The notes under the pieces were generated by a model that had not been told where the DNA came from, searched no databases, and saw nothing but the letters and a program-made list of their open reading frames with translations. A stretch of 64,000 nt of DNA from an uncultured SAR86 cluster bacterium (lineage in GTDB: Bacteria; Pseudomonadota; Gammaproteobacteria; Magnimaribacterales; D2472): contig CABWYS010000002.1 of NCBI GenBank assembly GCA_902509555.1, positions 1,478 to 65,477 of the forward strand. Direction: 5' to 3'. A program made the translations under genes and the position numbers. Of this stretch, positions 1-19,419 are shown piece by piece; the first letter of the stretch is position 1, and each line of letters starts with the position of its first letter.

Positions 1-2148
1 AAATGGGACATTTAATTTAGCTAAAATTTGAGCTTCATCACCCGTTTGTTTATAGGTAGTTTCAGGGGTAACTTCAAGTGTTCCAGAATACTTACCACCA
101 TACCCCCTGCTTACTAATCCAGGTTTAAAGCCACGTTTAGCTAGTTCATTTGCAATAAATTTAACTAAAGGGGTTTTGCCGGTTCCGCCCATTGAAATAT
201 TACCAACAACAATAATAGGTTTAGGGGAGTTCCAAACTTTTTTAGGGTTCCTTATGTAAGAATTCCTTCGTGCCTTTACTAAAGATGAAAATAAAAAAGT
301 AAGAGGAGCCAAAATATACAACCAAAAGCTTTTGTTGTACCAGGCATCAATTAGATACCCTTGCTGAGATGGCTCTTCGGTAAATGTTGGAAGGTACTCC
401 TTGCCAACAGATTTTTTTGATGGCTTTTTTGGATCTCCAGAATCATTGAATTTATTTTGATATAGGCTCTTGTAGATACCATCTTGGTCTAATAACTCAT
501 CATGAGTTCCTGACTCGGCAACTGAACCATTATCTAAAACTAAAATTTTGTCTGCATTTTCAATGGTCGAAAGTCTATGAGCAATAACAATGGTTGTTCT
601 ATTATTTATTAATTGCTCTATTGCCTCTTGCACAATTAATTCAGATTCATTGTCTAACGCTGAAGTGGCTTCATCTAAGATGATAATTGGTGAATCTTTA
701 TAAAAAGCTCTAGCTATTGCTATTCTTTGTCGTTGACCGCCAGATAATAAGACACCATCATCACCTATTTCAGATTTAAAGCCTTCCGGCAGCCTTGAAA
801 TAAACTCATTGCAGCCAGATATTTCAGCTGCCTCTTTTAATTTCGCTTGATCAATGTCGTTATCGCCGTAGGCAATATTTTTTTCAATCGTGTCATTAAA
901 TAAAGTTGGTGATTGATTGACTATTGAGATAGATTTTCGGAGATGGGATAACTGATAATCTAATATACTTACATCATCTATAGAGATTTTTCCCGAATAA
1001 TCAGAATAAAATCTTGATATTAAATTAGCAATTGTCGATTTCCCTGATCCAGATTTTCCAACAATAGCAATTGTTTCATTTTGGATGATTTCAAAATTTA
1101 AATTATCTAAGACAGATTCTTTGGAGTTATATGCAAAAGAAACATCTGAAAACCTAATATTTCCTATAATATCTGAGTCTAACTCGCCTGTGTCCTCTTC
1201 TTCTTTTGCGTCTAATTGGTCAAAAATTTCTACAGCTGCTGCTAACCCTTTTTGAATAACAGCATTAATATTTGAAAGTTGTCTAATCGGTTTTGCCATT
1301 AATCCCGCTGCGGTTATAAAAGCAACAAAATCTTCAGCGCTTAGCTCTATACCTAGTTGTGAGCCCAATGCAAAATAAGCAACTATAGATAATGAAACTG
1401 AAACTAGAAGCTGGATAATAGGTGTTGCCAAATTACTGGTTGCTTCAAGTTTTAAATTTTGATTTTTATTTGAAGCATTGGCAGCGAGGAATCTATCTTT
1501 TTCATATTTTTCAGCATTAAATGACTTAATTTCTAGATTTCCATCAACTGCCTCAGATGCAAGATGAGTTACATCCCCCATGGCTGTTTGGATTGTTTTC
1601 GCCAACTTTCTTAATCTTCGACCAGCAACATATACTATTAATGCTATAAATGGGGTGGTGATTAATAAGAGCAGTGTTAACTTCCAGTTTAAAGTAAGCA
1701 TATAGGCTAGTAAGCCGACAAGAAGAAACCCTTCTCTTACGAAAGTCTTAATAGCATTTGAGGCAGCACCTGAAACTTGCGTAGTGGTAAAAGTAATTCT
1801 ATTAATCAGTTGGCCTGATTGATTTTGATCAAAGAAATTCTTAGGAAGGTTAATCAGTTTTGAGAATAGCTCAGATCTTAGGTCATGAACAATGCCGAAC
1901 CCAACCCTAGACATAAAATAGTTACCAACAAAAAAGCCTGCACCTCTTCCCATTGCAATAAAAATTAATGCTAGGACAAGATATATGCTGAAATCATCTT
2001 GATCAGAATTGATATATTCAATAATTCTTCTAATCCATTCAACAGCAGCAATGTCTGCCGATGCAAAAAGAATAAAGCCAAAGATACTTAAAATAAATGA
2101 AAATTTAAATCTAAAGGTATACGAAAATAGTCTCTTTAAGGGATTCAT
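1..2148 (-). CDS. msbA: MsbA-type lipid A ABC exporter fused in frame to an LpxK (tetraacyldisaccharide 4'-kinase) domain; the 3' end runs off the window
   Basis: Hand translation of the minus strand from ATG at 2148 finds no stop down to position 1. The ORF is absent from the track because it leaves the window. It has a TM domain and an NBD (Walker A GKSGSGKST, signature LSGGQRQRIAIARA, Walker B ILDEATSALD). A linker follows, then an LpxK-like helix FWLYILAPLTFLFSSLV and P-loop VVGNISMGGTGKTP...SRGYGG. Confidence 0.85.
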   Translation of the reverse strand, partial: MNPLKRLFSYTFRFKFSFILSIFGFILFASADIAAVEWIRRIIEYINSDQDDFSIYLVLALIFIAMGRGAGFFVGNYFMSRVGFGIVHDLRSELFSKLINLPKNFFDQNQSGQLINRITFTTTQVSGAASNAIKTFVREGFLLVGLLAYMLTLNWKLTLLLLITTPFIALIVYVAGRRLRKLAKTIQTAMGDVTHLASEAVDGNLEIKSFNAEKYEKDRFLAANASNKNQNLKLEATSNLATPIIQLLVSVSLSIVAYFALGSQLGIELSAEDFVAFITAAGLMAKPIRQLSNINAVIQKGLAAAVEIFDQLDAKEEEDTGELDSDIIGNIRFSDVSFAYNSKESVLDNLNFEIIQNETIAIVGKSGSGKSTIANLISRFYSDYSGKISIDDVSILDYQLSHLRKSISIVNQSPTLFNDTIEKNIAYGDNDIDQAKLKEAAEISGCNEFISRLPEGFKSEIGDDGVLLSGGQRQRIAIARAFYKDSPIIILDEATSALDNESELIVQEAIEQLINNRTTIVIAHRLSTIENADKILVLDNGSVAESGTHDELLDQDGIYKSLYQNKFNDSGDPKKPSKKSVGKEYLPTFTEEPSQQGYLIDAWYNKSFWLYILAPLTFLFSSLVKARRNSYIRNPKKVWNSPKPIIVVGNISMGGTGKTPLVKFIANELAKRGFKPGLVSRGYGGKYSGTLEVTPETTYKQTGDEAQILAKLNVPF

Positions 2149-2150
2149 GA

Positions 2151-2555
2151 CTAATCAGTATAAGTTTTAATCTGTATGTTTTGAAATCCCAACTGTTTCA
2201 GACCATCCATTAAGCTTATGACCCACTCATGATAGGCTTTGCTTTCTATGGAGAGAACAACAACTTCTGATTTAGAAAAGGTTGCAGCAACTCCAGCCAT
2301 TAATTTATCAATCTCTGTCATAGAAAATTCTTGATTATTAATTATGAGCACCCCAGATTCTAATAAAATAATATTTTGAGAGTTGTTTGATAGAGCTGAC
2401 GCAAATGATTTAGATTCAGGAAGGTCTAAAGTTAGATATTGGTTAGTTTCTATTTTTGATGTAACAACAAAAAAAATTACAAGAAGAAAAACAATATCTA
2501 TCAAGGGAGTAATTTCGATTGAAAGAGCTCTTTCTTTATTATTATAAAATTTCAT
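2151..2555 (-). CDS. exbD: ExbD/TolR-family biopolymer transport protein
   Basis: 134 aa with a single N-terminal TM helix (ITPLIDIVFLLVIFF) typical of ExbD/TolR. It overlaps the upstream exbB-like gene by 4 nt and ends 2 nt before the msbA start. Confidence 0.8.
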   Translation of the reverse strand: MKFYNNKERALSIEITPLIDIVFLLVIFFVVTSKIETNQYLTLDLPESKSFASALSNNSQNIILLESGVLIINNQEFSMTEIDKLMAGVAATFSKSEVVVLSIESKAYHEWVISLMDGLKQLGFQNIQIKTYTD

Positions 2556-3154
2556 TTTTTATATAGAAAATCTAAAAAAATTGACGTATTGGCTTGCAAG
2601 ATTGACATCAAAATTACAGTTTTTTGTTCGAAATACCTATAAAAAACAATAGCTGGTACTGCAATAATTAACCCAAAAGCAGTTGTGATTAAAGCTTCTG
2701 AAATTCCGGCTGCAAGCAAATCTGTATTTGCAGAGCCATTTACGTCAATGTTACTAAAAACCGTTATCATCCCAACAACGGTTCCTAAAAGTCCCAGCAA
2801 AGGACTAATGCTTGCTATTGTGCTCAGCATCGATAAATTTCGTTCAAGGAGTAATTTAATTTCTGAAGCTTTCTCTTCGGCTTTTGTCTCAATAAATTCT
2901 CTTGAATGTAAACGGTATTGATAGCAGTGCTGCAGTAAATCTCCTAATTGAGATGTGGCTGAAATTTCTTGCTGATTTTGAGTGTGAAAAGAATCTTTTT
3001 GAATTAAATTTTGCACCTGTCTTAACAATCCTTTTGGTGCAACCAACCTCCTCTGCAAAAACCAAAGTCTCTCAATCACTATTGAAAAAAGCAAGATAGA
3101 GCAAACAAGCAAAGGCCAAATAAACCATCCACCAGATATTAATAAATTATTCAT
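2552..3154 (-). CDS. exbB: ExbB/TolQ/MotA-family proton-channel protein
   Basis: 200 aa with 3 predicted TM helices. The C-terminal motif SPLLGLLGTVVGMI..F..I is characteristic of the MotA/TolQ/ExbB family. Confidence 0.8.
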   Translation of the reverse strand: MNNLLISGGWFIWPLLVCSILLFSIVIERLWFLQRRLVAPKGLLRQVQNLIQKDSFHTQNQQEISATSQLGDLLQHCYQYRLHSREFIETKAEEKASEIKLLLERNLSMLSTIASISPLLGLLGTVVGMITVFSNIDVNGSANTDLLAAGISEALITTAFGLIIAVPAIVFYRYFEQKTVILMSILQANTSIFLDFLYKK

Positions 3155-3155
3155 T

Positions 3156-3833
3156 TTATGCTGACTTTAAATCTCCATTCTCAATACGAAATACTGCATC
3201 CAGTTTATCAGCATAATTTAAATCATGAGTTGCGACCACAATACCTATATTATGATTTTGAGCTAATTTAATAGTTAAGTTTTGAATTACTTCAGCATTC
3301 TCATGATCTAAGTTACCGGTTGGCTCATCCATTAATACAAACTTTGGCTCATGCACCACAGCTCTAGCAATAGCAACACGTTGTCGCTCACCACCTGAAA
3401 GCATATATGGGTACTTTTCTTGCAATGAAGCGATTCCAAGCTCATCAAGAATCTGGATGATTCTTTTAGAATTTTCGTTAACTTTATTATTATTGGCAAT
3501 CTTAAAAACTAGATTACAATTCTCAAATACAGTTAGGTCATCTAGCAAGTAATGAAATTGATATGCATAGCCAAACAAATTACCCCTCATAGAATTAAAA
3601 TTATTTGAATTATTAGAAGAAAGATTGATTTCGTTAAAAAAAATATCGCCTTGGTCAGGAGTCTCCAACCCAGCAAGAATTTGCAAAAGTGTTGTTTTGC
3701 CACTTCCAGAATAGCCAATAATCCCAATTGAATTGCCCTCGGAAATAGAAAATGAGATATTTGATAAGACCTCCGTTTGATGATCTCCCGATTGATAAGT
3801 TTTACTAATATTTGAGGCTGTAAGTTTATTCAT
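3156..3833 (-). CDS. lolD: Lipoprotein-releasing system ATP-binding protein LolD
   Basis: Walker A GYSGSGKTT, signature LSGGERQRVAIARA, Walker B FVLMDEPTGNLD. It overlaps the LolC/E-type permease gene by 8 nt. Confidence 0.85.
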   Translation of the reverse strand: MNKLTASNISKTYQSGDHQTEVLSNISFSISEGNSIGIIGYSGSGKTTLLQILAGLETPDQGDIFFNEINLSSNNSNNFNSMRGNLFGYAYQFHYLLDDLTVFENCNLVFKIANNNKVNENSKRIIQILDELGIASLQEKYPYMLSGGERQRVAIARAVVHEPKFVLMDEPTGNLDHENAEVIQNLTIKLAQNHNIGIVVATHDLNYADKLDAVFRIENGDLKSA

Positions 3834-5064
3834 GGCGTAAAATAGTTACAGGCTTCAACTTAGCTGCTCTAGCTGCTGGAAAATATGAAAATATTAAGCT
3901 CATTGCAAGAACAGAAAGGCATATATATATAAGTTGAGTTAATCTAAATTCATATGGAAAATAATTAATGAAGTAACTGTCCATCAAACTTCTGTTACTA
4001 AAATTTTCTATAATATTAATGAGCTGATCTATATTAGGGGTTACTGCAATCCCTATCAATAAACCAATAAATGTGCCTAAAAATCCAATAATTAAACCTA
4101 AGTTTAAAAAAATAAATGTAAGTTGAATTTTTGAACAGCCCATAGTTTTTAAGATCGCAATCTCTTTTTCCTTGGTTTTAACTGTCATTACGATGGTTGA
4201 GAGGATATTAAAGGCGGCCACTGTGATAATTAAAAAGAGCATAAGACTTATTAATCTTTTTTCTAATTTAATGGCTTGAAATAATGTTCCATGAGTCTGT
4301 TGCCAAGAAGTAAAATAATAATAGTCTTCATTTAGAAATGGTTGAGCCAGCAAATTAAAACCGAGTGAATTAGCGGCAAATAAATCATTGGTTTTAACTC
4401 TGATGCCTTGGGTAGCATTTTTTGGAAGGTTTAAAATGTTAGCTGCTAAATCATGATGAATTAAAACAAGCGATTGATCTAATTCAGCTTTAAGTTCAAA
4501 TATGCCAACAATCTCTAAAGAAATAGTCCTTGGAAAAGTTCCTATAATTGAAGAACGTAAATTGGTTGTTGTGATATTGACCTTATCTCCAAGCTCTACT
4601 CCTAGGTACCTAGCTAACCAAGAACCTACAATCACTCCTTTATTTGGAGAAATATTATCCAATGACCCACCAGTCATATACTGCGGAAGAATAGACATGG
4701 AACCTTCTAATTCAGGCTTAATTCCTGTAACAAAAACGCCTCTTGATCTATTTTTGGCGCTCATTAATCCCTGAGTTTCGATATAAGGACTCGCACTGAT
4801 AACATTTTCTACGGTGCTTATTTTAGAAATCAATTCCTCGTAATTATCAAGATTTTCATTAGATCGAATAATCAATTGAGGAACTACGCCAAGAACTCTG
4901 GTTTGCAATTCTTTTTCAAAACCATTCATGACAGATAAGACGATAACTAATGCAGCGACACCAAGTGAAAGGCCAGCAGTAGCCATCAAAGAAGTGAAGG
5001 ATGCAAATGCACCCTTCTTTGATCGAAAATACTTGTAGCCCAAGTAAATAGGCAATGAGTTCAT
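3826..5064 (-). CDS. lolC: Lipoprotein-releasing system permease, LolC/LolE family (only one copy in this operon, LolF-like arrangement)
   Basis: 412 aa FtsX/MacB-type permease. N-terminus LGYKYFRSKK, a large periplasmic loop, and 3 C-terminal TM helices. It sits immediately upstream of lolD. Confidence 0.85.
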   Translation of the reverse strand: MNSLPIYLGYKYFRSKKGAFASFTSLMATAGLSLGVAALVIVLSVMNGFEKELQTRVLGVVPQLIIRSNENLDNYEELISKISTVENVISASPYIETQGLMSAKNRSRGVFVTGIKPELEGSMSILPQYMTGGSLDNISPNKGVIVGSWLARYLGVELGDKVNITTTNLRSSIIGTFPRTISLEIVGIFELKAELDQSLVLIHHDLAANILNLPKNATQGIRVKTNDLFAANSLGFNLLAQPFLNEDYYYFTSWQQTHGTLFQAIKLEKRLISLMLFLIITVAAFNILSTIVMTVKTKEKEIAILKTMGCSKIQLTFIFLNLGLIIGFLGTFIGLLIGIAVTPNIDQLINIIENFSNRSLMDSYFINYFPYEFRLTQLIYICLSVLAMSLIFSYFPAARAAKLKPVTILRHE

Positions 5065-5069
5065 AGTAC

Positions 5070-19087: not shown

Positions 19088-19177
19088 TGGCGGAGAGACA
19101 GGGATTCGAACCCTGGAAACCCGCGAAGGTTTGCTGGTTTTCAAGACCAGTGCATTCAACCGCTCTGCCATCTCTCC
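19088..19177 (-). tRNA. tRNA-Ser (anticodon UGA)
   Basis: The reverse complement reads GGAGAGATGGCAGAGCGGTTGAATGCACTGGTCTTGAAAACCAGCAAACCTTCGCGGGTTTCCAGGGTTCGAATCCCTGTCTCTCCGCCA. It has a 7-bp acceptor stem, anticodon loop CTTGAAA, a long variable arm, a TTCGAAT T-loop and an encoded CCA. Confidence 0.93.
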
Positions 19178-19331: not shown

Positions 19332-19419
19332 ATTAATATCGTTCATCCTTATCTTGGGACGGAAGTAGGTAATAATACTGAAGGAACGCATCTTATTGCC
19401 AACCGGCAGGAGATGAAAA

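Follow-up and report, generated by a model that had tools for sequence, protein, structure and literature searches.

Do bacteria of the SAR86 cluster make MsbA, which flips lipid A, and the lipid A kinase LpxK as a single polypeptide? The question is raised by the left end of a 64,000-nt stretch of DNA, hereafter the window, which covers positions 1,478 to 65,477 of contig CABWYS010000002.1 (assembly GCA_902509555.1) from an uncultured SAR86 cluster bacterium. A preliminary description of this stretch had claimed that its first 2,148 nt, read on the minus strand, join the two genes in frame. We found that the msbA::lpxK fusion is real and full-length, with both halves intact. It is under purifying selection, linker included, has become fixed throughout the SAR86 clade and is shared with other Gammaproteobacteria.

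The fused frame and its two halves

Translation of the window gives 716 codons without a stop on the minus strand, from the ATG at 2148 to nt 1. No earlier start follows the in-frame stop upstream of this ATG, which is 2 nt past the stop of an exbD-like gene. The 716 codons (1..2148, -) are the 5′ part of a gene of 918 codons, whose last 202 fall past the left edge of the window. The list of closed open reading frames (ORFs) has no entry for 1-2148 (-) because the frame leaves the window, as had been proposed. The window coding sequence has 96.9% nucleotide identity to positions 2309-4456 of locus L019, from the single-cell genome AG-319-K08, in which ORF 2309-5065 encodes 918 amino acids (aa); protein identity to this locus is 100% over the query of linker and LpxK region. 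A homolog search covering 5.8 billion proteins yielded at least 120 clusters, each exactly 918 aa, with 93–99% identity, 100% query coverage and the domains PF00664, PF00005 and PF02606. These originate from independently assembled JGI, ENA, NCBI, Tara and Logan data. The claim of an in-frame fusion thus stands on the open codons, the three Pfam domains and the recurrence of the same 918-aa protein. Past the left edge the LpxK domain is complete in the full-length copies: in one of them (P0001, 918 aa, 99% identical) the Pfam LpxK match spans profile positions 3–327 of 328 (316.9 bits), and the C-terminal half scores 253.1 bits with TIGR00682 (cutoff 91.95).

The strings quoted in the preliminary description (end of the nucleotide-binding domain, charged and Pro-rich linker, helix, P-loop and SRGYGG) were all found close to where it had placed them. 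The protein begins with the MsbA transmembrane domain (TMD) of a type I ABC exporter (aa 18–284; 1297..2097, -; Pfam ABC_membrane, 163.7 bits). The nucleotide-binding domain (NBD; aa ~331–570; 439..1158, -) was located by Pfam ABC_tran (aa 347–496, 111.8 bits) and by its motifs, and its end string ...THDELLDQDGIYKSLYQNKF finishes at aa 572 (nt 433). The inter-domain tether NDSGDPKKPSKKSVGKEYLPTFTEEPSQQG follows (aa 573–602; 343..432, -), with evidence from disorder in an AlphaFold2 (AF2) model, from the alignment of fused lineages and from the ratio of nonsynonymous to synonymous substitution rates (dN/dS). Next come the LpxK N-terminal membrane-association helix, YLIDAWYNKSFWLYILAPLTFLFSSLVKARR..., and a basic patch (aa 603–633; 250..342, -; AF2 and alignment), with the helix string FWLYILAPLTFLFSSLV present in the window frame, and finally the beginning of the kinase core of LpxK (aa 634–716; 1..249, -; Pfam LpxK, 110.8 bits, and motifs). 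The Pfam LpxK match in the window takes in aa 611–711, profile positions 3–104 of 328, and is ended by the window edge (~105 LpxK residues). It holds the P-loop GNISMGGTGKT (aa 649–659, nt 172–204), then SRGYGG (R681) and GDEA (D704/E705). With the helix, P-loop and SRGYGG in place, this end was aptly described as a typical LpxK N-terminus.

The MsbA half is predicted from sequence to be an ABCB-type half transporter and lipid A-core flippase. It matches the equivalog TIGR02203 (MsbA_lipidA) over aa 5–568 with 631.1 bits, above the cutoff of 602; the score with the enterobacteria-tuned NF008381 (532, cutoff 867) is below, as expected for a distant lineage. All ATPase motifs are intact: Walker A GKSGSGKS at 364, Q-loop VNQ at 410, signature LSGGQ at 468, Walker B IIILDEATS at 488 and H-loop AHR at 523. 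Long helices were predicted by AF2 across aa 2–312, and solved MsbA chains matching by sequence include 9bd6, 7met, 3b5x and others.

The LpxK half is a predicted tetraacyldisaccharide-1-phosphate 4′-kinase with the full set of catalytic residues. The full-length protein carries GNISMGGTGKT, SRGYG, GDEA, DDGLQH, GPLRE, DHH and TEKD, the last four past the window edge and present in P0001. The half aligns with Aquifex aeolicus LpxK (4EHW, chain residues 8–304, E 2e-26). Among 49 fused proteins K658, R681, E705, R722, D741, D742, H746 and H860 are invariant, and D704 is kept in at least 90%. These positions correspond to A. aeolicus K51/T52, R72, D99/E100, R119, D138/D139, H143 and H261 (numbering of PMC6286764), among which K51/T52, D99/E100, D138/D139 and H261 are catalytic and R72, R119 and H143 lipid-binding (PMC6286764); only the equivalents from K658 to E705 are inside the window. 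W603 and P615 are likewise invariant in the 49 proteins. AF2 places helices at 598–604 and 608–633, the latter followed by the basic patch KARRNSYIRNPKK, and the helix region aligns from residue 8 of 4EHW. In LpxK the N-terminal amphipathic helix and basic patch are needed for activity (PMC6286764).

Tether, distribution and number of origins

The tether varies in sequence, always with an open reading frame, and the alignment of fused lineages has a semi-conserved [YF][LM]P-x-[FY]-x-[ED]E motif in those of SAR86. Rough dN/dS values (Nei-Gojobori, 13 indel-free SAR86 genes) are 0.03 for the TMD, 0.07 for the NBD, 0.17 for the linker, 0.09 for the LpxK helix and 0.04 for the kinase core, so the linker is relaxed yet clearly translated and constrained. 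The H-loop His and the P-loop Gly of LpxK are 113–146 aa apart (median 125) in 293 fused proteins from all the independent lineages. Plain concatenation would give an estimated ~102 aa, from an unfused MsbA tail (median 49) and an LpxK N-terminus of ~53. Every fused lineage therefore has ~10–45 surplus residues, and none is a minimal end-to-end fusion. AF2, run as a monomer on a 49-sequence alignment, gave two folded halves, mostly with predicted local distance difference test (pLDDT) values of 70–90, and left aa 567–596 of the tether unstructured (pLDDT ~28, no secondary structure).

With the linker and LpxK region as query, we scanned a set of genomes in which each GTDB species has a single representative; the matches place the window in the SAR86 cluster. 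All 80 loci returned were classified as fused or unfused by extending the LpxK frame upstream and by separate BLAST comparisons with the MsbA half and the LpxK half. Every SAR86-type species locus is fused (32/32; MsbA 66–99%, LpxK 59–100% identical), and among the 48 other loci from Gammaproteobacteria 47 are unfused, the sole exception being L034 ('MT_MAG1'). Where msbA is adjacent in the unfused relatives, lpxK starts in an ATGA or GTGA overlap with the msbA stop or directly after it. An exhaustive phmmer search of 1.84 billion 50%-identity representatives added ~16–18 further clusters aligning across both halves in a single alignment (912–1146 aa, 32–49% identical to the query). Among these P0122 is a deeper 'SAR86 cluster bacterium', and P0123 an abundant Tara-ocean gammaproteobacterium. 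A profile from 14 distant fusions then added at least 120 clusters at 90% identity, in which the three Pfam domains recur. Those of the distant fusions that are named carry the labels Gammaproteobacteria, Pseudomonadales or Candidatus Azotimanducaceae. The architecture is accordingly present in all SAR86-type species, in the further 50% clusters and in the Pseudomonadales-type 90% clusters, which answers the suggestion that its phylogenetic distribution be mapped.

The gene order exbB-exbD-msbA::lpxK-(trm112)-kdsB...murB is common to L019, L034, L081 and L082. Some distant fusions are on contigs of 4.1–6.5 Mb, and two chromosome-sized records, including CP121333.1, have the order exbB-exbD-msbA::lpxK-trm112-kdsB...murB, as in SAR86. 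Chromosomes of 4.1–6.5 Mb thus rule out that streamlining of the tiny SAR86 genomes alone brought the fusion about. Two fused proteins of the gammaproteobacterial family, P0366 and P0372, have the NCBI labels Cyclobacteriaceae and Flavobacterium sp.; these are most likely mis-binned contigs of metagenome-assembled genomes, and the labels were not trusted. One distant fusion, P0191 (1146 aa), has after the kinase an extra C-terminal tail of ~180 aa, of low complexity and rich in Ala, Glu and Lys.

Neighbor-joining trees (Kimura distances, 100 bootstraps) were made from 76 LpxK-domain and 64 MsbA-domain sequences. They recover a monophyletic SAR86 core in 99–100% of replicates. In the MsbA tree SAR86 groups with P0122 and P0123 at 98% support, and the family of P0124 and L034 has 100%. 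Unfused lineages set the distant fusions apart from SAR86 in both trees. The fused proteins form a single clade in 0/100 bootstraps of either tree, leaving one ancient origin for all fusions unsupported. Fitch parsimony counted in every replicate at least 4 changes between fused and unfused states for LpxK and at least 5 for MsbA (medians 8 and 7), counts to be taken as approximate. From these bootstrap and parsimony results the fusion would be ancestral to a broad clade containing SAR86, with approximately several gains or losses elsewhere.

What the fusion may do

We consider the product, with a probability of about 0.85, to be a 918-aa bifunctional inner-membrane protein composed of an MsbA half-transporter, a disordered tether of ~30 residues, the LpxK amphipathic helix and the kinase core. 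The MsbA half would contribute a six-helix TMD and an NBD. MsbA being homodimeric, the fused protein would also dimerize and so bear two tethered kinase domains. The LpxK helix cannot span the membrane, because the C-terminus of the NBD is cytoplasmic and LpxK needs ATP; it would instead come back to the cytoplasmic leaflet and sit there as an interfacial anchor, a placement that fits the crystal-structure model of amphipathic helix and basic patch (PMC6286764). The tether would let this helix fold back from the cytoplasmic NBD C-terminus to the inner leaflet, and its surplus length is as expected if the helix must reach from the distal NBD back to the bilayer. There the kinase would phosphorylate tetraacyldisaccharide-1-phosphate beside the flippase. 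The predicted outcome is an obligatory 1:1 stoichiometry, with co-insertion and with co-localization of the last indispensable lipid A step and export, and no second translation start. Fixed 1:1 synthesis and co-localization certainly follow from the fusion; a kinetic hand-off of lipid IVA, or of a later product, to MsbA is uncertain.

The fusion may have arisen from an ancestral, translationally coupled msbA-lpxK operon with a 4-nt stop/start overlap, by stop loss and a frame change that joined the genes. The state of the junction would have changed several times in the Gammaproteobacteria, each fused lineage being seen with extra tether.

The preliminary description had supposed that a covalent fusion would couple the last kinase step of lipid IVA synthesis to the flippase. 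The joining is borne out by the open frame; the functional part is conjecture, and in E. coli other enzymes intervene. WaaA, LpxL, LpxM and core glycosyltransferases act there between LpxK and MsbA (PMC4412817). LpxK is the last strictly indispensable step in the Raetz pathway, and lipid IVA can be transported (PMC6286764). The gene kdsB lies directly downstream of the fusion gene, which suggests that Kdo is still added in SAR86.

Several points weigh against the bifunctional, co-localized protein proposed here. Channeling would bring no obvious benefit, because LpxK and MsbA are non-consecutive in E. coli (PMC4412817). The joining is possibly selectively neutral, as the separate genes are already co-transcribed and translationally coupled (4-nt overlaps), near 1:1. 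Proteolysis may occur in the disordered linker, the intact 104-kDa polypeptide being a prediction from the gene. Synonymous divergence (dS ~1.1) is near saturation, which makes the dN/dS values rough, and the neighbor-joining trees are crude, with deep long branches, which makes the number of independent origins approximate. The AF2 monomer shows no confident inter-domain contact or fixed arrangement (predicted template modeling score 0.43); the structure prediction that had been proposed for the full fusion thus delivered two folded halves and a disordered tether, and no usable inter-domain geometry.

The strongest of the alternatives is that the fusion is a neutral 'frozen accident', in which a stop was lost between coupled genes and the change was tolerated without advantage, the halves working independently. 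This is a serious alternative for the 'why', possible though not the account we favor, and it leaves the identity of the product unchanged. It fits with the several enzymatic steps that lie between LpxK and MsbA in E. coli (PMC4412817), with an AF2 prediction that shows no docking, and with the linker being the least constrained segment. However, the fusion has been kept across a whole clade with members only ~50–60% identical, the junction has changed state at least 4–5 times, linker dN/dS is 0.17 and not ~1, and the spacing stays within 113–146 aa, none of the fusions being of minimal length. All this speaks for constraint without proving an advantage.

A quite improbable alternative is that one ORF gives two proteins, LpxK being freed by internal initiation or by proteolysis of the linker, with no covalent coupling in the cell. 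The predicted disorder of the linker would leave it open to proteases. AT-rich marine genomes often have weak or no Shine-Dalgarno sequences, and their absence is not decisive here. Against the alternative, no in-frame ATG, GTG or TTG with a Shine-Dalgarno-like motif was found near the junction in 31 fused loci (30 SAR86-type and L034) or in the window, and no promoter-like site was found at the junction, with no excess over shuffles. Ten SAR86 loci are without any candidate junction start, and start positions are not conserved. These results lend no support to LpxK being made separately from a start or promoter inside the gene. Moreover, a linker that served only for cutting would need no bounded length across independent lineages.

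It is very improbable that a separate lpxK supplies the activity and that the LpxK half of the fusion persists as an enzymatically dead remnant or an anchor. The half scores 253 bits with TIGR00682 (cutoff 92), its catalytic residues are all invariant or nearly so, and the kinase core has a dN/dS of 0.04. A redundant copy is also unlikely because SAR86 genomes are small and streamlined (PMC11582366). That a missed stop or an indel at nt ~350–450 falsely joins two genes has a negligible chance; nothing was found in its favor, and it was ruled out without recourse to reads by the same 918-aa ORF, which at least 120 independent clusters share across five sources of data, by divergent junction sequences that are in frame in all 32 SAR86-type species, and by codon-level purifying selection on the linker.

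Neighboring genes and comparison with known systems

Upstream of the fusion gene and tightly packed with it is an exbD/tolR-like gene (2151-2555, -), preceded by an exbB/tolQ-like gene (2552-3154, -); both have NCBIfam matches below the curated cutoff. Such a pair is directly upstream of msbA::lpxK in every fused lineage examined (window, L034, L081, L082), with stop and start codons that overlap or abut. Further upstream on the same strand, as context outside the fusion, are genes for a lipoprotein-release ABC transporter (3156..5064): lolD (3156-3833, -; TIGR02211 LolD, 235 bits, below the cutoff of 308) and lolC/E (3826-5064, -; TIGR02212 lolCE, 389 bits, cutoff 362). On the other side, a 61-aa Trm112p/YcaR gene lies between lpxK and kdsB in large-genome relatives (L081 8891-9076, L082 8892-9077) and in E. 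coli. The corresponding place in L019 (5066-5211, just past the left edge of the window) is a 147-nt gap with no ORF of at least 70 aa, and the Trm112p/YcaR gene seems to have been lost or shortened in SAR86. Elsewhere in the window, at 19338-19392 (+), Rfam identifies a glutamine riboswitch (glnA RNA motif, RF01739; 59 bits, gathering score 35, E 1.8e-10). This match is a nitrogen-sensing riboswitch in a SAR86 genome, and it adjoins a tRNA-Ser(tga) (19088-19177, -).

The preliminary description did not know how common the architecture is, and allowed that it might prove already widespread and annotated. Widespread it is, with Pfam domains machine-annotated on the records, but every database source names the fused protein only 'MsbA', and no describing paper was found. 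Among solved structures in the PDB no chain holds both halves. Our search of full-text literature, including the SAR86 isolate paper, found no natural MsbA-LpxK fusion; the 'fusion' matches were lacZ or GFP constructs or the operon name. The annotation gap has a practical side, in that with hundreds of records named 'MsbA' only, pathway reconstructions may wrongly score lpxK as missing.

Both halves are essential and heavily studied antibiotic targets in lipopolysaccharide biogenesis, and SAR86, where the fusion is fixed, is among the most abundant bacterial groups of the surface ocean. The topology of the LpxK anchor gains independent support from genetics through the fusion, which calls for a cytoplasmic N-terminus and for a helix that is interfacial and not membrane-spanning. 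A possible assembly of MsbA and LpxK could be studied structurally with this naturally tethered construct. In the 'Rosetta stone' sense the fusion would predict spatial coupling of the last indispensable lipid A step to export. Taken to its full extent, this sense would make MsbA and LpxK a functional unit in Gram-negatives generally, with LpxK, possibly along with later enzymes, at the cytoplasmic-leaflet entry of MsbA and its product handed to, or gated by, the flippase. We regard so general a unit as unlikely. If it were true, kinase and flippase would act in concert, through non-covalent association in E. coli and pathogens and through the covalent link in the fused lineages, and the bounded tether length would reflect the geometry of an MsbA-LpxK complex.

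The closest known system is the msbA-lpxK (orfE) operon of E. coli, which has the same two proteins in the same order, co-transcribed (PMC4412817), with kdsB and ycaR downstream. The two genes were described from the outset as adjacent but separate, and the K-12 coordinates agree: msbA (966621-968369) and lpxK (968366-969352) overlap by 4 nt and give two polypeptides, whereas the SAR86 fusion has no stop and ~23 extra tether residues. In the PDB only one other MsbA matches the sequence better than the E. coli MsbA structures do. With A. aeolicus LpxK (4EHW/4EHX/4ITL/4LKV) the kinase half shares the N-terminal amphipathic helix, P-loop, DE, DD...H and DHH; the A. aeolicus N-terminus is free, whereas in SAR86 LpxK the covalent link to the NBD keeps it in the cytoplasm. 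So held, the helix cannot cross the membrane N-out and would lie in the inner leaflet or dip into it, in line with the crystallographic model. The other gammaproteobacterial fusions (P0122-P0145, P0191 and the P0124 family; L034, L081, L082) have the same domain order, the 113–146 aa spacing and the exbB-exbD-fusion-kdsB-murB synteny, but are only 32–49% identical to the SAR86 protein, have unrelated linkers and in some cases come from genomes of 4–6.5 Mb.

Bifunctional LpxC/FabZ and other fused lipid A enzymes are examples of neighboring or functionally linked pathway genes that became one polypeptide. Fusions of the LpxC/FabZ type join two soluble enzymes; MsbA::LpxK, unlike these, joins an enzyme to a transporter. 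The nearest analogue that we encountered is P0166 (976 aa), in which an N-terminal Wzy_C/O-antigen-ligase domain (aa 175–328, 59.5 bits) precedes an MsbA-like ABC exporter (aa 408–973, 43% identical to the query MsbA half), a second type of lipopolysaccharide enzyme fused to an MsbA-type transporter. The components of MsbA::LpxK are thus of the textbook kind and their covalent union is the variant, a domain fusion of adjacent operon genes that is common in its lineages.

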